From an uncultured Candidatus Saccharibacteria bacterium (GTDB lineage: Bacteria; Patescibacteriota; Minisyncoccia; UBA6257; GWB1-50-10): a stretch of DNA of 43,647 nt. This document shows, piece after piece, positions 4,718 to 29,805 of this stretch. The first letter of the stretch is position 1. Every line of letters starts with the position of its first letter. The position numbers and the translations under genes are program-made. Location: the NCBI GenBank assembly GCA_964639325.1, contig CAZXDO010000024.1:1-43647 (forward strand). The letters run 5' to 3'. The notes beneath the pieces were generated by a model. That model was not told where the DNA came from and ran no database searches. It saw nothing but the letters and a program-made list of their open reading frames with translations.

Positions 4718-4748
4718 CAACTTGGGGGTTCCCGACACCCCCAAGTTG
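4718..4748. repeat. GC-rich palindromic repeat element, copy 2
   Basis: A 31-mer identical to 1641-1671. Confidence 0.85.
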
Positions 4749-4864: not shown

Positions 4865-6352
4865 CTATTTCTTTTTCTTTTTTCTAAGAAAAGTAGGAAC
4901 ATCCCAAGGACTGGACTTGGAATCATCATTACCTTCCTCGTCCAAATCTCTTTCACTTCCCCAACTACCACCTGATGAAGAATTAGAAAAAGGATTTTCT
5001 TCTTCTTCTACACCACTTTCATCATCTGAATCCTTATCAACTTTCAAGGAGTTAATTTCAAAATTGCTTTTTCTTTTCTCGTCACGGCTAAAAAGGTGGG
5101 GCATATTAAAAGAGTTGCTATCTCTTAATGCTCCGTTAAAACCGGTAGCGATTACCGTTAATTTTATTGCTTTGTCTTTCAAACTATTGTCATTTATTGC
5201 CCCAAAGATGACTTGAGCGTTAGGATCCAAACTATCTGATATTACTTTGGCAATGTCATTAACTTCTGACATTTTAAGATCTCTGCCTCCGGCAATAGAA
5301 AACAAAACACCCTTAGCTCCTTCAATTGATGTTTCAAGAAGCGGTGAGTTAACTGCTTGTTGAATAACTTTTGTACTCCTATCTTGTCCTCTTGCCAAAC
5401 CTACCCCAATCATACTTGTCCCCATATCTTTCAAAATAGTTCTGATATCTGAAAAATCAACATTAATAATTCCAGGTACGTTGATAAGATCGGCAATTGC
5501 CCCAACACCGTCTTTTAGGACGTCATCAACATAAGCAAAAGCCTTAAGAATAGAAGTGTCTTTATCAATTACAGAGAAAACTCTGTCGTTAGGAATAATT
5601 ACCAAGGCGTCAACATTTTCTCTTATCCTGTCAATTGCTTCTTGGGCAATCATCATTCTTTTTGATCCTTCAAATTTAAAAGGGCGAGTAATAATACCTA
5701 TAGTCAAAACCCCGGCTTCTTTAGCTATCTCAGCAATAACCGGAGCAGCTCCGCTTCCGGTTCCACCGCCAAAACCAGCTGCTACAAAAACAATATCAGC
5801 TCCTTTAATAATTTCTCCTATCTCAGAACGATTTTCTTCAACAGCTTGGCGGCCAATATCAGGATTCATCCCTGCTCCCATACCTTTAGTAAGAGCTCGG
5901 CCTATATGAATTTTTTTGTGGGCTGAAACTTCTTCAAGGTCCTGCATATCAGTATTTACTGCAATATATTCCACTCCCCTTATCCGATTACTGTTTCTCA
6001 TTCGGCTAATTATATTACCCCCGGCTCCGCCTACTCCAATAACTTTAATATTAGTAATTCCCTGATTACTCTTTGATCTTGGACGCCTGCTCTTTGAACT
6101 TTTTCCCGCAGAAACTCTACGCTTTTTCGTACCCTTTTTCCCGGTACTTGGTTTTTTTCTTTTACTGTTTGAAGTTTTCTTAACTTTCTTATCAACCGTT
6201 TCTTTTACGTTCTTGGTTTTCTTGCTATTTTCTTTCTTTTCTTTGTCTTTTTTGTTTTTTTCTTTCTCGTGAACTGCCATATGAGCTTTAAGGTTATAAA
6301 AAAGTTTATGACACACAGGACAACGTTCTCTTTTTTTCTTGGTTTTTGGCAT
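4865..6352 (-). CDS. ftsZ: Cell division GTPase FtsZ with an approximately 100-aa N-terminal zinc-finger/basic extension
   Basis: IKVIGVGGAGGN, the GGGTGSGAAPVIA tubulin signature, and the C-terminal DVPTFLRKK peptide. The N-terminus carries CPVCHKLFYNLKAHMAVH and a K/R/S-rich tail. Confidence 0.9.
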   Translation of the reverse strand: MPKTKKKRERCPVCHKLFYNLKAHMAVHEKEKNKKDKEKKENSKKTKNVKETVDKKVKKTSNSKRKKPSTGKKGTKKRRVSAGKSSKSRRPRSKSNQGITNIKVIGVGGAGGNIISRMRNSNRIRGVEYIAVNTDMQDLEEVSAHKKIHIGRALTKGMGAGMNPDIGRQAVEENRSEIGEIIKGADIVFVAAGFGGGTGSGAAPVIAEIAKEAGVLTIGIITRPFKFEGSKRMMIAQEAIDRIRENVDALVIIPNDRVFSVIDKDTSILKAFAYVDDVLKDGVGAIADLINVPGIINVDFSDIRTILKDMGTSMIGVGLARGQDRSTKVIQQAVNSPLLETSIEGAKGVLFSIAGGRDLKMSEVNDIAKVISDSLDPNAQVIFGAINDNSLKDKAIKLTVIATGFNGALRDSNSFNMPHLFSRDEKRKSNFEINSLKVDKDSDDESGVEEEENPFSNSSSGGSWGSERDLDEEGNDDSKSSPWDVPTFLRKKKKK

Positions 6353-18152: not shown

Positions 18153-19535
18153 TTACAAACCAAAATTATTTTCCAACCATTTTATAATATTTTTCACATC
18201 ACTTTCCCTATTTTCTGAATCTAAAACTCCTATAAAGAAATATCTGGGAATATTATCTTTTTCAAATTTCCAAACAGAAGCATATGTTTTACCGGCTGAA
18301 GAGGACTCTCCATTTTTTGCTCCAACAAGACGAGGGTCGTCGCTAAATTCATTAAAAGTTTCAATTCCGGAAAAAACATTTGAACCAAAAATAGAATAAT
18401 CCTTCCCTTTAGAAATATCATAAATAAAACGCCGCTTCTCCAAAATATATTTTGCCATCTTTAAAACGTCGTGAAGAGTAGAAATATTTCCTGCCTCAAC
18501 ACCGCCGGGGTCAACAAATTTAGTTTCTGTCATATTAAGGGACTCTGCCTTTTTATTCATCTGATAAACAAAATATTCCTCCCCCATCATTGAAGCAATA
18601 GCTCTTCCTGCTCCGTTGGAGGACTGGGCAAGAAGCGGATACAGCATATCAAAAGCTTTATAACTCTTCCCCGCCGAAAGAGGATAACTCTGAACAGAAT
18701 CTTTTAGCATTTCCGGTGTAATAATAACTTCTCTCTCTAGATATATAAGCTCGCTAGCCACTGTTGCTGTCATCAATTTAGCAAGAGAAGCTATAGGCAT
18801 AACAGAATCAGAATTTTTGTTTAAAATAGTTTCGCCGGTATCCAAATCCCCCACTAAAACTGCTTCAGCTGAAACCTGAGGAACTTTCGCAACAGAATCC
18901 AATGGTACAACCTTTGAATAAAGAGATGGTTTTTCTTCCTTGTCATAAACCAAAATAGGCATCCCTTTCTCCGCAAAATTAAAAACCTCCTCAACATTTT
19001 CATCTTTTAGGCGAATACAACCACCGGAATAACCGTCGGGGACCGGTTCTCCATTAGAATAATAAGGACGACCGTGAATAAAAAAGTTGCCGTAAAACTG
19101 GATACTCCAAGGCATCCAAACTTCTCCAATTGAAGAAAAATGGTTAATTTCCTTATTTAAAGCAGTATAAAATCCTGTGGGAGTTTCCCACCAACTTCCT
19201 TCTTTTCCTTTGCTTAAAACCTCAAAAGAATCTTTCTCCTTTCCTTTGTCGTACAAAAACATTTTCATACCTTCCAAATCAATCGCTATAAAACTTTTTT
19301 CCTCCTCTATCAATTCATTCTTTTTATCCATAAAGGTTCCCTGCCCATTTCTCCCTTGATTACCATCAACAAAAAAGGTTTGGTTGTAACCGGTTTGATA
19401 AACTTTTGTTTCGGGAGTTTTTTCTTTCACCAACTCTTTATTCTTTACCCATAATTTCAAATTGAAACCCATTGAAATAACGAGAAGGAGTAAAAGAAAT
19501 AATGAAATACCTAAATATATATAACGCTGTTTCAT
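18153..19535 (-). CDS. Fusion of an L,D-transpeptidase (YkuD) domain and a D-alanyl-D-alanine carboxypeptidase (S11) domain
   Basis: N-terminal TM segment. YkuD motif FFIHGRP..SGGCIRL. S11 motifs ASLAKLMT (SxxK), SSNGAGRA (SxN) and KNG (KTG-like). Confidence 0.75.
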   Translation of the reverse strand: MKQRYIYLGISLFLLLLLVISMGFNLKLWVKNKELVKEKTPETKVYQTGYNQTFFVDGNQGRNGQGTFMDKKNELIEEEKSFIAIDLEGMKMFLYDKGKEKDSFEVLSKGKEGSWWETPTGFYTALNKEINHFSSIGEVWMPWSIQFYGNFFIHGRPYYSNGEPVPDGYSGGCIRLKDENVEEVFNFAEKGMPILVYDKEEKPSLYSKVVPLDSVAKVPQVSAEAVLVGDLDTGETILNKNSDSVMPIASLAKLMTATVASELIYLEREVIITPEMLKDSVQSYPLSAGKSYKAFDMLYPLLAQSSNGAGRAIASMMGEEYFVYQMNKKAESLNMTETKFVDPGGVEAGNISTLHDVLKMAKYILEKRRFIYDISKGKDYSIFGSNVFSGIETFNEFSDDPRLVGAKNGESSSAGKTYASVWKFEKDNIPRYFFIGVLDSENRESDVKNIIKWLENNFGL

Positions 19536-19609
19536 TAAGAAAATAATAACATAAGAAAAGGCAAAAAACGTCTTAATAATTTCTTGCCTAATTTTTTAAT
19601 AAATAGAAA

Positions 19610-19643
19610 CTCAATTCATATCACGACCGTGATATGAATTGAG
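19610..19643. repeat. 34-bp perfect palindrome, left copy
   Basis: ctcaattcatatcacg-ac-cgtgatatgaattgag. It ends 2 nt from the stop codon of the PaaX-like gene. Confidence 0.9.
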
Positions 19644-19645
19644 CA

Positions 19646-20227
19646 CTAAATCTTCTTTTCCAAAGTCCCTTTTTTATTTACAGAAAATATTTCCACATAA
19701 GGTGCTATATTTAATAATTTTAAATCACCCAAAAAATTACTGGATATTTTTTTACTGCCAATCCACACACTGCCCTGAAGAAGTTCAAAACCCATATTAT
19801 TTAAAGCCGATCTTAACCAATCTCTTTTCCACCTTTCCTTTTCAGGCACATCAAATATAACTATAACGACCCCGTCAATCTTTTTTTCTTCGTAATTATT
19901 CTTTCCAAATCTAGCCCTCAAAAAACTTTTTTTCTTGTTGCCTAACTTGGTTAAAGTCCATCCATTAGTGTTCTTCTCTACTAATCCTTGTTTTTTTAAC
20001 TCACTAAGCGTGGAATAAACTGTCTGCTTTTCTTTTCTTATTTTTTCCTTTTTACTTTCATAAACTGCTGAAGTTCCTGAAATTTTCCTCCTCATTTTTT
20101 TATAAGATTCATTATACCCGCTTGTTGCTATATCAATTATTTCTGCAGTAGTTTTTATCCCTTCTTCCAAAAACTCCATTAATTCTAATCTTCTTTTGGT
20201 ATTCCTCATATATATTAAAAAAGTCAT
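19646..20227 (-). CDS. PaaX-like regulator: winged HTH plus a Cas2-like ferredoxin-fold domain
   Basis: wHTH segment VYSTLSELKKQGLVEK..GWTLTKLG. Cas2/PaaX-middle-like segment VVIVIFDVPEKERWKRDWLRSALNNMGFELLQGSVWIG. The true start may be M7 (20209). Confidence 0.6.
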   Translation of the reverse strand: MTFLIYMRNTKRRLELMEFLEEGIKTTAEIIDIATSGYNESYKKMRRKISGTSAVYESKKEKIRKEKQTVYSTLSELKKQGLVEKNTNGWTLTKLGNKKKSFLRARFGKNNYEEKKIDGVVIVIFDVPEKERWKRDWLRSALNNMGFELLQGSVWIGSKKISSNFLGDLKLLNIAPYVEIFSVNKKGTLEKKI

Positions 20228-20230
20228 TAA

Positions 20231-20264
20231 CTCAATTCATATCACGGTCGTGATATGAATTGAG
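20231..20264. repeat. 34-bp perfect palindrome, right copy
   Basis: ctcaattcatatcacg-gt-cgtgatatgaattgag. The arms are identical to the left copy and the central dinucleotide is reverse-complemented. It lies 3 nt upstream of the annotated ATG. Confidence 0.9.
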
Positions 20265-20317
20265 CAATAAATTTTTCCCAACTTTATTACTTTCTGACAA
20301 TCTACTTCTTTTTTTAC

Positions 20318-21325
20318 CTATAACAACTTTGATGCCCTCACTACGTGTTTAAGCAAGGTTGATGCATAACCAAATTCATTATCGTACCAAGACAAAACTT
20401 TTACCAAATTTCCTCCAACCACTCTCGTAAAAGAAAGGTCAACAATAGCGCCATAGGGCTCACCTATAATATCTGAAGAAACAATAGGTTCATCGGTTGC
20501 CTTCAAAACACCTTCCCATCTGGGGTCAGCTGCTGCTTTTTTAAAAACTTTGTTTACTTCTTCCACGCTTGTATCTCTTTTAGAAATAAAAGTAATATCA
20601 GCTATAGATCCGGCTATTACCGGAACTCTTAAGGCAATTCCATCAAATTTTCCTTCCATTTCCGGAATAGCCTTAGCAACGGCCTTAGCCGCTCCGGTTG
20701 TCGAGGGAATGATGTTTTGGGCAGCTGCCCGCCCTCTTCTTACCTTAGAACCCTTAGGGGCCACATCTACAATATTCTGAGAAGACGTATATCCATGAAC
20801 GGTGTTTAATATTGCTTTTTCAATTCCAATTTCTTCATCAATAACTTTAATCACGGGAGAAGCTGCGTTTGTAGTACAAGAAGCATTTGAAGAAAGAGGA
20901 AATTCTTCAAGGCCGTTTTCATTTATCCCCATAAGAACAGTTACTCCTTCGTCACCTTCTGAAGGGGCAGTAATTACCACTCTCTTTGCTCCGGCTTCTA
21001 TGTGTTTTTTAGCTTTTTGATATTCAGTGAAAACTCCCGTAGATTCAACCACAATATCAATTCCTAAATCACCCCAAGGGAGATTTTCCGGGTCTTTTTC
21101 TTGAAAACATTTTATTTCCTTTTCAGCAACAACAAGATTCTCATTTTTTATTTCCACTTCCCTAGAAAAACGTCCGTAAACGGTATCGTATTTCAAAAGA
21201 TAAGCAAGGGTTTCTATATTTCCCAAATCGTTAATTGCTAAAACGTCAACATCTTTATTCTCTAAGGCAAGGCGAAAGAACAAACGGCCGATCCGCCCAA
21301 AACCATTTATTGCTACTTTTGTCAT
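20318..21325 (-). CDS. gap: Glyceraldehyde-3-phosphate dehydrogenase
   Basis: INGFGRIGR and the SCTTNA active site. Confidence 0.92.
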   Translation of the reverse strand: MTKVAINGFGRIGRLFFRLALENKDVDVLAINDLGNIETLAYLLKYDTVYGRFSREVEIKNENLVVAEKEIKCFQEKDPENLPWGDLGIDIVVESTGVFTEYQKAKKHIEAGAKRVVITAPSEGDEGVTVLMGINENGLEEFPLSSNASCTTNAASPVIKVIDEEIGIEKAILNTVHGYTSSQNIVDVAPKGSKVRRGRAAAQNIIPSTTGAAKAVAKAIPEMEGKFDGIALRVPVIAGSIADITFISKRDTSVEEVNKVFKKAAADPRWEGVLKATDEPIVSSDIIGEPYGAIVDLSFTRVVGGNLVKVLSWYDNEFGYASTLLKHVVRASKLL

Positions 21326-22323: not shown

Positions 22324-25300
22324 ATGAACAAATTTACTCACTTACACGTACACTCCCATTACTCCATGTTAGATGGGCTGTCAAAAATTGAAGATATTGT
22401 TAAAAAAACTAAAGAACATGGAATGAAAGCCGTGGCCTTAACCGACCACGGTAACCTCTATGGTGCTATCGAATTTTATAAAAAAGCAAAAGCGGAAAAC
22501 ATCAAGCCAATTATGGGTCTTGAAGCGTATTACGCTCCGGAAAGCCGGAAAAAAAAGGATAAAACAAGTAGAAACCGCTACCACCTCACTCTTTTGGCAA
22601 AAAACAATACCGGCTGGAAAAACCTTCTTCAACTAGTTACCATATCAAACCTTGAAGGCTTTTATTACAAACCCCGCATTGACGACGAACTCCTTGAAAA
22701 ATATCACGAAGGGTTAATCTGTCTTTCCGGATGTATTTCCGGAGAAATTCCTTCTCTTGTTAAAAAGGAAAAAAAAGAAAAAGCAGAAAAAAGAGCAAAA
22801 TGGTTTAAATCCTTGTTCGGTGACGATTATTACATAGAACTCCAGAAAAACTATTCCGAACTTCATGAGGAATTGAAAAAACTTGCCAAGAAAATAGGTA
22901 GTAAAGTAGTGGCTACACAAGATTCCCATTACATTAATAAAGAAGATAAAGACGCCCACGAAATTCTTCTTGCCGTCCAAACAAAAAATGTAATTGAAAG
23001 TGATGATAGAATGTCCCTAAAAGATTTTGACCTTCATTTTGCCTCTACTGAAGAAATGACTGAATATTTCAAAGACACTCCGGAAGCAATAAAAACAACA
23101 GAAGAAATTGTTGATAAATGTAATGTTGAAATAAAACTTGGAGAAAACAAAATTCCTAAATTTGAAACACCAAATGGAGAAACTACCCAAGAATATCTTA
23201 CCAAACTAGCCAAAGAAGGGCTTTCTAAAAGATATGAAAAAGTTACTCCGGAGATTAAAGATCGCCTTAAAGCTGAGCTGGAAGTTATTAAAAAAACCGG
23301 CTTCGCCGATTACTTCTTAATCGTCCAAGATTTTGTCCAATGGGCTAAAAAAAGAGACATTGTGGTCGGTCCGGGAAGGGGTTCGGCTGCCGGAAGTTTA
23401 GTTTCTTACTCTATCGGCATTACCAATATTGACCCACTAAAATACGACCTCCTTTTTGAAAGATTTTTAAACCCTGAAAGGGTTCAAGTTCCCGATATTG
23501 ATATTGATTTTACTGATACAAGACGCGATGAAGTTATTGCTTACGTCCGTGAAAAATACGGCCAAAAAAACGTAGCTCAAATCATTACCTTTGGAACTAT
23601 GGCTGCTAGAGCTGCTATTCGTGATACCGGACGGGCCCTGGGATATTCATACGGATTTTGTGACAGAGTAGCCAAACTTATCCCCTTCCAAACAAACATC
23701 AAAGAAGCTCTTGATTCGGTTGATGAGCTTAAAGAAATGTACGAAACCGAAGAACAAGTTAAAAAATTAATTGACTCGGCCCTAAAACTGGAAGGAGTTG
23801 TCCGCCATGCTTCAGTTCATGCCTGCGGAGTAGTAATTTCTCCTAAACCCCTTCCCAACTATGTTCCTCTCCAAAAAGCTCCCCAAGGAGAAGACGCTAT
23901 TATTACCCAATTTGAAATGCATAGCGTGGAAGATCTCGGTATCCTTAAAATGGACTTTTTAGGACTCAAAAACCTCACTATTATAGAAGAAACTCTCCAA
24001 AGCATAAAAGAACAGCACAACAAAGAGATAGATATCAATAAAATACCTCTGGACGACAGAAAGACTTATCGACTCCTTCAAAAAGGTTTAACCGTAGGTG
24101 TTTTTCAGTTGGAAGGCCAAGGTATGCAACGTTATCTCAAAAAACTTCTCCCTTCTGAATTTGAAGACATTATCGCCATGGTTTCCCTTTATCGTCCCGG
24201 ACCCATGGAACTTATCCCTCACTACATAAAAAGGAAGTTTGGTGAAGAAAATGTTACTTTTCTTCATCCTAAACTTGAACCAATTCTCTCCCCTACTTAT
24301 GGCATAGGAATTTACCAAGAACAAATGATGAGAATAGCCCGAAACCTGGCCGGATATTCTCTTGGAGAGGCCGATGTTCTTCGAAAAGCGATTGGTAAAA
24401 AAATAAAATCACTCCTTGATAAGCAAAAAGTAAAACTTATAGAAGGAATGATAAAAAACGGCATTGAAGAAAAAACCGCTAAAAAAATATGGGACCTCTT
24501 TCCTCCCTTCGCCCGTTATGGTTTTAACAGATGTTTAACAGGGGATACTAAAATATACAACCCGGAAACCGGCAGTTTGGATGAAATAAAGGAAATCCAC
24601 CGGAAAGGAAAAGGGACGGTAGCCTCCATAAAAGAAAACTTTAAACTCGCAAAATACCCTGCTACCAAAACCTACTACAACGGAAAAAAGAAAGTTTGGA
24701 AAATAACTACCAAAAGTGGAAGAGAGATAACCGCTACCCCCAACCACCCCTTCTATACCGAAAGCGGCTGGCAAAATCTTGAAAACATAAAGGAAGGCGA
24801 TCGCCTTGCCGTCCCCCGCACACTTCCCGAACCAAAAAAGACAAAACCGGTAAAAAAACACAAACTTGCTCTTCTCGGCTACCTTATAGCAGAAGGGAAT
24901 CTCTGTCACCCCCACGGATTTTACTTCTACTCCAAAGAGGAAAACGAAATAAAGGACTATATTAAAAACCTGGAGAAATTCAAAAACACTGTTGGAAGAA
25001 TAGACCGAAGCAAATCCGCTGCCTCAGTCTACTCTAAAAGAAAGAATGTAAAAGAAAAATCGGAAGCCGTTGAATGGATTAATTCTCTGAGCATTAAAAA
25101 CAAAATTGCCATTGAAAAGAAATTCCCTGACTTTGTTTTTAACCTTTCCAACAAAGACCTTTCTATCTTAATCAGCAAAATGTTCCAAGGCGACGGATGC
25201 ATAAATAACAAGCGAGATCCTCAAATATTCTACGCCACCTCCTCAAAAAAACTGGCTAAAGAGCTCCAACACCTCCTTCTCCGTTTTAATATTCTCTCCA

Positions 25301-26757
25301 CTATCCACCAAAAAAATTTCAAATACCGGGAGGAGATAAAAAAAGGCTACACCGTAACCATCTCCCGCTACAACAACATTGAAAAGTTCATCAACGCCTT
25401 CAGTAAGCATTTCGTAGGCGAAAAGAAAAAAACATCCAAAAAAATCTTAAAAAAACATCCTATTATAAATAAAAAAATAAAAACCTGGTCCGCCAGAGGC
25501 AGTTTTGATACAATCCCTGTTTCCCTGGTCTTAAATGAAATCCGGGAGGTTGTAAAAACAAAAGCAGGTTCCTTTCGAAGTTTTTCAAATGAAACCGGCA
25601 TTTCCTGGCGCCTCTTTATGAAAGATAAAAAGAAAAAAGGATATCTAAGGGAAACTATCAACGAAATAGCGGAAAAAACCAGAAACGAAAATCTCTATAA
25701 TCACGCTCAATCAGACATCTATTGGGACAAAGTAGCAAAAATAGAATACGCAGGAGTCGAAGACACCTATGATCTTACTATCCCTAAAACCCACAACTTT
25801 GTAGCCAACGATATAATTTCCCACAACTCCCATGCCGCTTCCTACGCTACTATTGCCTACCAAACCGCTTACCTCAAAGCCCGCTACCCAATTGAGTTTA
25901 CCACTGCCCTCCTAAATGTTTCCGGTAATGATATTGAAAGAATAAGTTTTCTCATCGGTGAGTCGCGCCGCTTGGGCATTGAAGTTCTTCCTCCGGATAT
26001 AAACCAAAGCTATCGCAACTTTACCATAGACGAGGAAAATATCCGCTTTGGCCTTCTTGCCGTCAAAAACATCGGCGGAAATATTGCTGATGCAATAATA
26101 GCAAAAAGAAGAGAAGGAGGTCCCTACCAAAACATCTCTGACTTTCTTTCCCGCGTCCACCATCATGATTTAAACAAAAAATCACTAGAGAGTTTAATAA
26201 AATGCGGAGCCTTTGATAATTTTGAAAGCGACAGAGGAAAGCTCCTTGCCAATATAGAAGAAATGCTTAGATTTAAAGAAGCTGTCAGAAAAAAGATGGA
26301 TAGTAATCAAGGAGATCTTTTTGGTAAAAAATCATCAATTACTCTTAAACTTAAACCGGCTAGAGAAAAGGTTGATAAAAATAAAATTCTAGCTTGGGAA
26401 AAAGAACTTTTAGGTCTCTACCTTACCGACCACCCTTTTATTAAATACAAAAACAAACTTTCAAGCTGGGTAAAACCAATAGGAGAAATAACCCAAAATG
26501 GTGCCGGCGGAAGCAAGTATTATATAACGGCAGGACTTATTTCTTCCGTTAAAAAAATACTTACCAAAAACGGAAAACTTATGCTTTTTGTAAAACTTGA
26601 AGATGAAAAAGATTCTATCGAAATACTTGTTTTTAATAATACCTTTCAAGAAAACAGCAAAGTTTGGGAAGAAAATAAAATAGTCCTTGTAAAAGGAAAA
26701 TTATCAAGCCGAGATAACGACCCTAAACTTATCTGTAATCAAGTTAAGGAACTTTAA
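22324..26757 (+). CDS. dnaE: DNA polymerase III alpha subunit (DnaE) containing an intein
   Basis: PHP motif HLHVHSHYSMLDG, GPGRGSAAGS, PDIDIDF. The FARYGFNR / SHAASYA motif is split by 432 aa. Confidence 0.92.
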   Translation: MNKFTHLHVHSHYSMLDGLSKIEDIVKKTKEHGMKAVALTDHGNLYGAIEFYKKAKAENIKPIMGLEAYYAPESRKKKDKTSRNRYHLTLLAKNNTGWKNLLQLVTISNLEGFYYKPRIDDELLEKYHEGLICLSGCISGEIPSLVKKEKKEKAEKRAKWFKSLFGDDYYIELQKNYSELHEELKKLAKKIGSKVVATQDSHYINKEDKDAHEILLAVQTKNVIESDDRMSLKDFDLHFASTEEMTEYFKDTPEAIKTTEEIVDKCNVEIKLGENKIPKFETPNGETTQEYLTKLAKEGLSKRYEKVTPEIKDRLKAELEVIKKTGFADYFLIVQDFVQWAKKRDIVVGPGRGSAAGSLVSYSIGITNIDPLKYDLLFERFLNPERVQVPDIDIDFTDTRRDEVIAYVREKYGQKNVAQIITFGTMAARAAIRDTGRALGYSYGFCDRVAKLIPFQTNIKEALDSVDELKEMYETEEQVKKLIDSALKLEGVVRHASVHACGVVISPKPLPNYVPLQKAPQGEDAIITQFEMHSVEDLGILKMDFLGLKNLTIIEETLQSIKEQHNKEIDINKIPLDDRKTYRLLQKGLTVGVFQLEGQGMQRYLKKLLPSEFEDIIAMVSLYRPGPMELIPHYIKRKFGEENVTFLHPKLEPILSPTYGIGIYQEQMMRIARNLAGYSLGEADVLRKAIGKKIKSLLDKQKVKLIEGMIKNGIEEKTAKKIWDLFPPFARYGFNRCLTGDTKIYNPETGSLDEIKEIHRKGKGTVASIKENFKLAKYPATKTYYNGKKKVWKITTKSGREITATPNHPFYTESGWQNLENIKEGDRLAVPRTLPEPKKTKPVKKHKLALLGYLIAEGNLCHPHGFYFYSKEENEIKDYIKNLEKFKNTVGRIDRSKSAASVYSKRKNVKEKSEAVEWINSLSIKNKIAIEKKFPDFVFNLSNKDLSILISKMFQGDGCINNKRDPQIFYATSSKKLAKELQHLLLRFNILSTIHQKNFKYREEIKKGYTVTISRYNNIEKFINAFSKHFVGEKKKTSKKILKKHPIINKKIKTWSARGSFDTIPVSLVLNEIREVVKTKAGSFRSFSNETGISWRLFMKDKKKKGYLRETINEIAEKTRNENLYNHAQSDIYWDKVAKIEYAGVEDTYDLTIPKTHNFVANDIISHNSHAASYATIAYQTAYLKARYPIEFTTALLNVSGNDIERISFLIGESRRLGIEVLPPDINQSYRNFTIDEENIRFGLLAVKNIGGNIADAIIAKRREGGPYQNISDFLSRVHHHDLNKKSLESLIKCGAFDNFESDRGKLLANIEEMLRFKEAVRKKMDSNQGDLFGKKSSITLKLKPAREKVDKNKILAWEKELLGLYLTDHPFIKYKNKLSSWVKPIGEITQNGAGGSKYYITAGLISSVKKILTKNGKLMLFVKLEDEKDSIEILVFNNTFQENSKVWEENKIVLVKGKLSSRDNDPKLICNQVKEL
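24532..25827 (+). mobile_element. DnaE intein (432 aa) with a LAGLIDADG homing endonuclease domain
   Basis: Starts CLTGDTKIY. Block B is TATPNHPFY. LAGLIDADG motifs LALLGYLIAEGN and LISKMFQGDGCI. Ends THNFVANDIISHN, followed by +1 Ser. Confidence 0.9.
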
Positions 26758-28829: not shown

Positions 28830-29753
28830 ATGACTAAAAAATACAAAATATTAGTTATTGTTGGACCTACCGCTTCAGGAAAAAGCGACTTGGCAGTTAA
28901 AATAGCCAAAGAATTCAATGGGGAAATAATTTCAGCCGATTCCCGTCAAGTGTACAAAGGGATGGATATCGGCACGGCCAAAGTTCCTCTTATTAAAAAA
29001 GACGATAAACTTTACTACAAAAATATTCGCCACCACCTTATTGACATCGTGAAACCCAATAAACAATTTACGGTCCGGCAATACAAATCCTTAGGACAAA
29101 AAGCTATTAAAGATATAGTAAAAAGAAAAAAACTTCCCATAATTGCCGGCGGAACCGGTTTCTATATTGACACCTTAATTTACAATCTCCAAATACCAGA
29201 AATTCCACCCCAAGAAGAACTGAGAGAAAAATTGTATAAAAAAAGCACCCAAGAACTATACAAAGAACTTGAAAAACTAGATCTCGAGAGAGCTAAAGAC
29301 ATAAATAAAAACAATAAACAAAAAATAATCCGAGCTTTGGAAATAATAAAAACCACAGGAAAAACAATTCCGAAAATAATAAAACCGGATTCCCCTTATA
29401 ACCCTCTCTTTATCGGACTCAAATGTGAAAGAGACAAGTTAAAAGAAAAAATAAAAAATCGTTTGGAAAAAAGGCTAAAGAACAACAATCTTGTAAAAGA
29501 AATTAAAAATCTTCATGAAAGTAGAATTTCTTGGAAACGTCTGGAATCATTTGGGCTCGAGTATCGCTATGTCGCCCAATATCTTCAAAATAAAATTTCT
29601 GGAGAAGAAATGAAGGAAAAAATAATAAACGAAAGCTATAAATATGCCAAACGCCAGATGACTTGGTTCAAAAGAAACAAAAAAATTTACTGGTTTAACC
29701 AAGAAAACAAAGATGAAACCTTTACTTTAATTCAAAACTTTTTAAAAAAGTAA
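28830..29753 (+). CDS. miaA: tRNA dimethylallyltransferase
   Basis: P-loop GPTASGKS, DSRQVYKGMDIGTAK. Confidence 0.88.
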   Translation: MTKKYKILVIVGPTASGKSDLAVKIAKEFNGEIISADSRQVYKGMDIGTAKVPLIKKDDKLYYKNIRHHLIDIVKPNKQFTVRQYKSLGQKAIKDIVKRKKLPIIAGGTGFYIDTLIYNLQIPEIPPQEELREKLYKKSTQELYKELEKLDLERAKDINKNNKQKIIRALEIIKTTGKTIPKIIKPDSPYNPLFIGLKCERDKLKEKIKNRLEKRLKNNNLVKEIKNLHESRISWKRLESFGLEYRYVAQYLQNKISGEEMKEKIINESYKYAKRQMTWFKRNKKIYWFNQENKDETFTLIQNFLKK

Positions 29754-29780
29754 CTTGGGGGTGTCGGGAACCCCCAAGTT
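29752..29780. repeat. GC-rich palindromic repeat element, copy 3 (loop inverted)
   Basis: aacttggggg-tgtcgggaa-cccccaagtt. It overlaps the miaA TAA stop and lies between convergent miaA and gatB. Confidence 0.85.
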
Positions 29781-29805
29781 GATATGAATAAGTAAATTTA
29801 TTTAG

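Follow-up and report, generated by a model that had tools for sequence, protein, structure and literature searches.

A small gene in a 43,647-nt stretch of DNA from an uncultured, ultra-small Saccharibacteria bacterium (contig CAZXDO010000024.1) lies between two copies of a long, perfect palindrome. On balance, we judge that it probably encodes a self-regulating protein with these palindromes as its two cognate DNA sites, rather than a regulator of the neighboring gap and transpeptidase genes. We refer to the whole stretch as the window and give coordinates on its forward strand; the protein is called mini-PaaX, and the gene with its palindromes is called the cassette. Our judgment draws on what was directly observed of the anatomy of the cassette, its conservation across a protein family, the coupling between particular residues and bases of the site, the position of promoter-like sequences in relatives, and the presence or absence of the cassette among strains.

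The two palindromes have the form 16+2+16 (34 bp each) and are exact reverse complements of one another. The copy downstream of the gene reads CTCAATTCATATCACG-AC-CGTGATATGAATTGAG, and the upstream copy has GT at its center on the forward strand and AC on the sense strand of the gene. Allowing up to three mismatches, the 16-nt arm matched four times in the window, always inside the two palindromes (mean of 0.35 matches in shuffled sequences, with 0 of 100 shuffles reaching four), and a scan of the whole window for CG-centered long palindromes found none besides these two. Each is embedded in one of a pair of direct repeats with 91% identity, which continue past the palindrome for 2 nt at one end and 11 nt at the other. 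In the downstream repeat, the longer of these extensions takes in the final codons of the gene together with its stop codon. An earlier, sequence-only reading of this DNA had described the reverse-complementary palindromes, the similarity of about 11 nt to their right, and distances of 2 nt to the stop codon (19646–19648) and 3 nt to the annotated ATG (20225–20227), and we could confirm all of these. The start codon itself is more likely the ATG at 20207–20209 (M7, 187 aa), as suggested by two gene calls (P0001, 187 aa) and by the N-termini of homologs, so the 3-nt spacing holds for the annotated ATG, but the favored one leaves 21 nt between palindrome and start.

Assembly data indicate that the palindrome occurs in about two copies per genome and is not a dispersed repeat or a common terminator, because the k-mer depth of its 34-nt unitig was about twice that of the flanks in two public assembly runs of the source population (75 vs 32–38 and 45.8 vs 15–22; runs are labeled X1–X5). 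Public assemblies of this population also break exactly at the palindromes. The sequence-only reading had named a common terminator at many unrelated loci as a finding that would count against it, and neither the window, with its two copies, nor the unitig depth bears this out. An exact-pattern scan of genome contigs for the 34-mer gave no match, and a scan for the 22-nt core in a collection of metagenome contigs evidently without the source sample gave one locus (L005; loci from relatives and other organisms are labeled L003 onward). There, on an unrelated and GC-richer contig, positions 626–673 form a palindrome with 19-bp arms and the core TCATATCACG-AT-CGTGATATGA. It is terminator-like, follows a methionine aminopeptidase gene, and has no gene with the PaaX_M domain within 1.7 kb; the core match is probably chance among terminator palindromes. 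We also note that the unitig spanning the cassette (19614–20260) was deeper than the flanking contigs (38.4 vs 32–33 in X1 and 21.6 vs 15–16 in X2), which could reflect extra copies, a co-occurring strain that shares the cassette only, or noise from averaging over contigs.

By its domain matches, mini-PaaX is neither a PaaX ortholog nor a CRISPR Cas2, since it has no PaaX_C domain and scores below the PaaX and Cas2 cut-offs. Its strongest match was to the PaaX central Cas2-like domain (PaaX_M, Pfam PF20803; E 4.6e-15, 55.9 bits against a cut-off of 24) over residues 121–188, with weak Pfam winged-helix matches (TrmB, PadR) over residues 61–98. Two Cas2 models stayed below their curated cut-offs (23.4 vs 24.5 and 17.6 vs 23.8; TIGR01573, PF09827) and matched with their first half alone, and the PaaX equivalog TIGR02277 reached 19 bits against a cut-off of 264.55. 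No match to the PaaX_C ligand domain was found, and the protein stops 5 residues past the Cas2-like domain. Pfam and NCBIfam contained no match to an HUH/Y1 (IS200/IS605-like) transposase domain, and the 34-mer has no GTTRRRY core; the sequence-only reading had been right to report neither an HUH/Y1 motif nor an attC-like consensus. No CRISPR array was found within the 43.6-kb window, where the neighbors are housekeeping genes and do not include cas1.

Structure prediction placed the protein in the same company. An AlphaFold2 model built from 70 family sequences (mean predicted local distance difference test score 89.1) has three long helices, a beta-hairpin wing, a further helix, and then a beta-alpha-beta-beta-alpha-beta domain, which gives an N-terminal helical and winged-helix domain at about residues 1–107 and a C-terminal Cas2-fold domain at about 115–191. 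The best Foldseek matches were PaaX (8a39) and Rv0674 (3kfw), followed by many Cas2 chains that matched the C-terminal domain, in agreement with the winged helix and PaaX-type Cas2-like domain proposed from the sequence alone. Residue D126 was invariant in the 70 sequences, and a profile search aligned it with the Asp of the VVYDV motif in the Cas2-family chain 3exc_X; a Q-x-S-V-W motif was invariant or nearly so in the family. This profile search alone recovered Cas2, which was absent from a single-sequence phmmer search of the C-terminal domain against PDB sequences.

The arrangement of a gene between palindromes is a trait of the family to which mini-PaaX belongs. Our family search scanned one genome per species and gave 291 relatives, from which 80 loci were retained, all of them in metagenome-assembled genomes of uncultured bacteria and mostly labeled as lineages of the candidate phyla radiation (CPR)/Patescibacteria. 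A near-perfect long palindrome (arms of 13–25 bp) stood beside the gene in 62 of the 83 related CPR loci over which the layout was tallied, on both sides in 36, upstream only in 11, and downstream only in 15. Long palindromes with a CG center were about 118-fold denser beside these genes than elsewhere in the same loci (1.52 vs 0.013 per kb). The two copies at one gene had a median identity of 0.90, compared with 0.43 for copies from different loci. Arms were locus-specific, and the paralogs within one genome, of which several genomes hold two or three, carried different palindromes. In a profile search of 1.84 billion representatives, the family comprised 5,470 clusters (50% identity) at E ≤ 0.001 and 842 at E ≤ 1e-30, almost all with a length of 185–215 aa.

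Conservation within the palindromes was concentrated at the center. Numbering each half-site outward from the dyad, the consensus was R at p1, G at p2, and C at p3 in 57–61 of 62 loci, so that half-sites end in N-C-G-R at the dyad in nearly all loci and yield CGATCG, CGGCCG, or CGGTCG/CGACCG, a CG-RY-CG center. The two central bases varied among AT, GC, GT, and AC, even inside one locus. The flip between AC and GT in the window need not reflect an inversion, because these bases vary freely across the family. Non-self-complementary centers read GT on the sense strand in 15 cases and AC in 3, of which the upstream copy in the window is one; this bias may come from strand-biased mutation or from a functional polarity. 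A fixed helical phasing of the two dyads was considered and rejected (spacing 612–774 bp, Rayleigh p 0.2–0.8).

Two relatives illustrate how the layout varies. The sister locus L004 has a homolog with 69% identity at the same site after gap, and its palindrome carries compensated changes (CTCACTTTATATGACG-GT-...). Its downstream palindrome (847–868) keeps the left arm, the center, and 4 nt of the right arm, which puts a breakpoint nearly at the dyad. L003, a member with 39% identity, has three ACGATCGT-centered palindromes (4882–4917, 5589–5626, and 5854–5891). One lies upstream of the gene, one with different arms comes straight after the stop codon, and the third, which resembles the upstream one, comes after an opposite-strand tRNA-like gene. 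The gene immediately upstream encodes a tyrosine recombinase.

Covariation between protein and site suggests that these proteins read their palindromes. We compared every alignment column with every half-site position, and the strongest links all fell in the Cas2-like domain, between residues 132, 136, and 152 and positions p4, p5, and p1, respectively. At residue 152, within LQ-x-SVW, K occurred with A at the central p1 in 36 of 37 cases, and G or Q occurred with G. At residue 132, R accompanied A at p4 (29 of 32), K accompanied G, and Q or S accompanied C, and at residue 136, D accompanied C at p5, and N or G accompanied G. Independent contrasts on the family tree agreed for R132 and p4 A (11:1, same to opposite direction, p 0.006), K132 and p4 G (7:0, p 0.016), D136 and p5 C (7:0, p 0.016), and K152 and p1 A (5:0, p 0.06), and control contrasts against other site positions were balanced. 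One of these contrasts is that of the window (D136, ATCACG) with its sister L004 (N136, ATGACG). In the AlphaFold2 model, residues 132 and 136 lie one turn apart on the helix spanning 129–144, and residue 152 lies in the beta2-beta3 turn, a predicted geometry that suits reading of adjacent base pairs in a groove.

The position of promoter-like sequences suggests that, in most relatives, the upstream palindrome occupies the −35 or spacer region and would not be transcribed from the gene's own promoter, because the −10 box lies downstream of the dyad. Searching the sense strand from +15 to +45 nt from the dyad, we found a −10-like box after 28 of 43 upstream copies, compared with 11 of 47 downstream copies (p = 1e-4), and the extended TGn form after nine upstream copies and one downstream copy. 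L004 has a perfect TGTTATAAT at +28, 8 nt ahead of its ATG. In the window, a weak alternative −10 (TAATAT or TTTAAT) lies between the palindrome and the ATG at 20209, at a position equal to that of TGTTATAAT in L004. The other candidate promoter of the window, TTGTCA-18-AAAAAT (Table 1), is just upstream of the upstream palindrome, and such matches were no commoner than in shuffled sequence. Among RNA runs, none was found to contain the locus.

The cassette is accessory, present in some genomes and absent from others, and the palindromes come and go with the gene, because empty sites carry no palindrome. A strain in run X5 that is about 99% identical to the source (8 differences in 945 aligned bases) has a 322-nt contig joining position 20317, the base after the gap stop codon, to position 19558, 23 nt short of the start codon of the transpeptidase gene. 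The 57 bases between, read from loose contig ends as GAAAGTGTCTTTTATTTTAATATCAGACACTTTAAAAATTAATTCTTTTTGATTCGT, hold a hairpin with a 9-bp stem and no CG-RY-CG palindrome. Residual similarity of this spacer to the cassette or its flanks was looked for and rejected, as none exceeded that of shuffles. Relatives found through the transpeptidase protein keep the gene order DUF192-gap-transpeptidase-rpiB-rpe-tkt, with the spacers given in Table 1. The comparison of this spacer in relatives that the sequence-only reading had proposed thus found the cassette missing from L087, L088, and the X5 strain. The 263-aa open reading frame (ORF) that takes its place elsewhere (L089 2614–3405, also in L090 and L091) has no Pfam match, and the transpeptidase of these relatives is 65% identical. 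Judging from these sequences, the gap-to-transpeptidase spacer is a variable spot that recurrently receives accessory genes.

Neighboring genes were not conserved across the family. The 127 flanking ORFs of family members matched 151 Pfam families, the commonest of which was found in only 7, and gap was near 2 and a transpeptidase-like gene near 1 of the 82 family loci tallied. In the window, the neighbors are gap, an L,D-transpeptidase/S11 peptidase (carboxypeptidase) gene, rpiB, rpe, and tkt, with no linkage to paa genes. These results divide two suggestions of the sequence-only reading. Its first, that the palindromes are operators of the encoded protein, stands insofar as they appear to be cognate sites of that protein, given the conserved layout, the covariation of residues and bases, and the −10 box abutting the upstream copy in relatives. 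The part that extended this control to gap and the transpeptidase gene does not, given the empty sites and the lack of conserved neighbors. Its second, a hairpin-bounded mobile cassette inserted into a terminator, is borne out in that the unit is accessory; a pre-existing terminator that was split or duplicated is not what we found, as the empty sites hold no copy of the palindrome. Its third suggestion, hairpins that serve as substrates of the Cas2-like nuclease domain, may hold; the Cas2 Asp is invariant.

From these observations we infer binding, the geometry of a dimer, repression, and a role for the second site. Most likely, a mini-PaaX dimer binds each 34-bp dyad on double-stranded DNA. 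Helix alpha-1 (129–144) and the beta2-beta3 turn (151–153) would lie over the CG-RY-CG center and read p1, p4, and p5, and the winged helix would contact the outer arms. With the upstream site predicted to lie on or beside the gene's own promoter, binding would set the level of the protein itself, most simply by repression, as PaaX does at the Px promoter (PMC9493321). The downstream site may be both a terminator and a further binding site that closes off the unit, with the function of a transcription boundary, a roadblock, or a loop anchor.

Several points weigh against this reading. If a repressor has only about two sites per genome, and both belong to its own gene, no benefit to the cell is evident, and autoregulation alone leaves the 90% identity of the second copy unexplained. 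A catalytic role, which autoregulation does not need, would suit the invariant Cas2 Asp (D126), and the Cas2-like part of PaaX is described as a dimerization motif, not as a DNA reader (PMC9493321). The window has no good −10 box after the upstream palindrome, and its best promoter-like match precedes the palindrome, which would then fall inside the transcript. In the coupling analysis, the residue-base pairs were chosen after the scan, and the family tree is weakly resolved (11 of 67 branches well supported); the contrasts were computed on the best tree, and the well-supported branches alone leave too few pairs (1, 4, and 3).

The main alternative, which we regard as unlikely, is a selfish element that handles palindromes. 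In this case, the Cas2 fold would be a nuclease or strand transferase that nicks or cuts its own dyads as duplex, cruciform, or hairpin, and its activity would favor gain, loss, copying, or rearrangement of the cassette, much as RAYT transposases act on flanking REPs. The cassette's presence or absence among strains about 99% identical, the other cargo found in the same spacer of relatives, and the several diverged paralogs per genome among unrelated housekeeping genes would fit such an element, as would the same site at both ends, the broken L004 palindrome (4 nt past the dyad), the lack of evident host targets, and the invariant or nearly invariant metal-binding Asp and Q-x-S-V-W motif of Cas2. 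However, compared with the strain that has the empty site, the breakpoints are at the gene ends, some 50 nt beyond either palindrome, and neither a solo palindrome nor a footprint was left behind. The boundaries of the 758-nt spacer show no target duplication, terminal (inverted) repeats, or footprint. The clean empty site, terminal inverted repeats, and target-site duplication by which an insertion sequence (IS) or miniature inverted-repeat transposable element (MITE) is recognized were not found, and the whole spacer differs.

The copy number and distribution of the family also speak against a selfish element. The palindrome has about two copies per genome, paralogs within a genome are anciently diverged with no recent identical copies found, and the cassette of L004 has stayed in the same place, a sign of vertical inheritance. 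Searches for relatives in 2.9 million viral contigs and in phage records came back empty, and plasmid records yielded distant actinobacterial PaaX genes only. One contig in X3 and X4 joins the gap side to the 3′ end of the gene on the opposite strand, and we rejected this apparent inversion as evidence, because the assembly graph yields that path from the reference arrangement. Coverage is about 4x and has gaps at both true junctions; the argument takes the 34-nt inverted repeats to be longer than the assembly word, assumed at 31 letters (a value stated for the run index only). The cassette resembles the REP/REPIN and RAYT system ("REPtron") in that a single gene is flanked on both sides by palindromes its product is thought to recognize, and in that the matched pairs of protein and repeat differ between paralogs. 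It differs in lacking an HUH/Y1 transposase domain and in its longer, perfect palindrome, present in about two copies per genome compared with tens to hundreds.

Somewhat less likely still, in our view, is a catalytic form of sequence reading, in which a dimer on the CG-RY-CG dyad would use helix alpha-1 and the beta2-beta3 turn to read p1, p4, and p5, and would nick or cut the center by means of its conserved Asp pair. The mini-PaaX C-terminal domain shares the ferredoxin-type fold of Cas2 and VapD, and its alignment with Cas2 matches up the conserved Asp that ends beta-1 and the Q-x-S-V-(F/W) strand. Compared with Cas2, this domain is fused to a winged helix and scores just under the Cas2 cut-offs, and no CRISPR array is present in the window. 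We know of no Cas2 that reads DNA sequence. If such catalysis were real, the family would be an unrecognized class of palindrome-bounded selfish modules in CPR bacteria and might hint at a role of Cas2-like proteins before CRISPR.

We consider it improbable that the palindromes act as RNA, that is, as 5′ and 3′ mRNA hairpins bound or processed by the Cas2-like domain (whose ferredoxin fold is RRM-like and is shared by the ribonucleases Cas2 and VapD) in the control of mRNA stability, termination, or antitermination. Both copies are predicted to form very stable hairpins on the sense strand: the upstream copy folds with −27.7 kcal/mol (z −7.9), with a stem that extends imperfectly into flanking A-run and T-run sequence, and the downstream copy folds with −24.1 kcal/mol (z −6.95). 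The best promoter-like match of the window lies upstream of the upstream palindrome, which could be transcribed from it. At every locus, the downstream copy falls in the 3′ untranslated region (median distance from stop codon to dyad, 45 nt), and the strand bias of asymmetric centers (GT over AC) would also fit an RNA function. In most relatives, however, the −10 box downstream of the dyad places the upstream copy outside the mRNA. Mismatches in the arms show no excess of G-U over A-C (16 vs 12), which favors DNA over sense-strand RNA, and near-perfect complementarity over 16–25 bp exceeds what an RNA stem needs. Groove reading of a duplex would account for the coupling, in which residues one turn apart on a helix co-vary with neighboring base pairs.

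We give very little credence to the palindromes being ordinary bidirectional intrinsic terminators that insulate an inserted gene and are not recognized by its protein. The downstream copy has the form of a Rho-independent terminator, a stem-loop and U-tract at the 3′ end of a gene: its 16-pair stem is followed by TTTCTATTTAT on the minus strand, the sole terminator-like match in 19400–20500. The upstream copy comes after gap, stands between an A-run and a T-run, and could end gap transcription. A nearly identical 22-nt core also turned up once in another organism, behind an unrelated gene (L005). However, the other terminator-like hairpins of the window, like those of the empty sites, have GC-rich stems closed by loops, none of them CG-RY-CG-centered, and T-runs do not generally follow the downstream copies of the family. 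Conservation of the center over 62 loci and near identity of the two copies at one gene also speak against plain terminators, of which coupling of residues to bases would not be expected. The terminator form of the downstream copy does not exclude recognition by the protein. Equally hard to credit is a local regulator of gap and the L,D-transpeptidase/carboxypeptidase gene with the palindromes as its operators, because, although all three genes share a strand and the palindromes sit at the 3′ end of gap and upstream of the transpeptidase gene, the same gene order occurs without the cassette in the strain about 99% identical, L087, and L088, or with an unrelated ORF in L089–L091, and neighbors across the family are unrelated.

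The self-regulating protein that we favor has its closest known parallel in PaaX, the phenylacetyl-CoA-responsive GntR-type repressor of E. coli and Pseudomonas (PDB 8A39, 3L09; Pfam PaaX, PaaX_M, and PaaX_C), with which it shares a winged helix followed by a Cas2-like middle domain. PaaX is a winged helix-turn-helix repressor with TGATTC-N27-GAATCA, an inverted repeat, as its binding site, and it blocks RNA polymerase so that its own promoter is repressed (PMC9493321). Mini-PaaX is shorter (about 190 aa compared with about 305–316 aa) and lacks the C-terminal domain that binds the phenylacetyl-CoA ligand. Its sites are continuous palindromes of 34–50 bp with a CG-RY-CG center, lie on both sides of the gene, are paralog-specific, and have no paa genes nearby. 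Its Cas2-like domain co-varies with bases of the site, whereas that of PaaX is described as a dimerization motif only.

Other palindromic systems show partial likeness. HIP1 (GCGATCGC) shares the CGATCG core, and several family members have exactly GCGATCGC at the dyad. HIP1 is the highly iterated palindrome of cyanobacteria, an 8-mer in thousands of scattered copies, with no cognate flanked gene and no long arms. Integron cassettes carry a single 3′ attC site (RYYYAAC/GTTRRRY cores), compared with two identical sites here, and no integron integrase was found in the neighborhood within the window. Our literature search found no paper linking PaaX-like proteins to CPR bacteria or to such palindromes.

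If mini-PaaX does read its palindromes as a repressor, the family would amount to a naturally occurring collection of orthogonal protein-site pairs whose recognition code is partly readable, and a Cas2-type fold would be seen to read DNA sequence for the first time. The family is large although CPR/Patescibacteria genomes are very small and have few regulators, and it often occurs as several diverged copies per genome, each with a matched palindrome. A cassette without evident benefit to its host would also bear on selfish and accessory DNA in minimal genomes.

Table 1. Features of the cassette in the window and the corresponding spacers in relatives.
Feature	Position	Strand	Remarks
Mini-PaaX gene	19646–20227	−	193 aa from the first ATG; more likely 187 aa
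Upstream palindrome	20231–20264		Candidate operator; could also terminate gap transcription
Downstream palindrome	19610–19643		Second candidate binding site; matches the intrinsic-terminator pattern
Direct repeat pair	20229–20275 and 19608–19654		47 nt; repeat family D1
Sigma-70-like match, TTGTCA-18 nt-AAAAAT	20271–20300	−	Weak, 9/12 consensus positions; one candidate cassette promoter
Gap-to-transpeptidase spacer	19559–20316		758 nt: 51 nt, palindrome, gene, palindrome, 52 nt
L087 gap-to-transpeptidase spacer			76 nt; no cassette
L088 gap-to-transpeptidase spacer			2 nt; no cassette
L089–L091 gap-to-transpeptidase spacer			Unrelated 263-aa ORF with ordinary GC-rich terminators

Other genetic elements were also observed in the window. 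A complete group I intron lies at 190–443 on the minus strand (Rfam, 92.6 bits) at the start of the window, with a tRNA gene some 200 nt away at 657–731 on the plus strand. The dnaE gene for DNA polymerase III alpha (22324–26757, plus strand; 1477 aa) contains an intein with a LAGLIDADG endonuclease domain by Pfam match. In L087, dnaE is 1044 aa long with no intein families listed, so the intein appears to be present in the window and absent from L087. A 31-nt GC-rich hairpin, CAACTTGGGGGTTCCCGACACCCCCAAGTTG, occurs at 1641–1671, 4718–4748, and 29751–29781, with two exact copies on the plus strand and one on the minus strand with one mismatch, where none would be expected by chance. It looks like a small dispersed family of terminator-like repeats, unrelated to the mini-PaaX palindrome.

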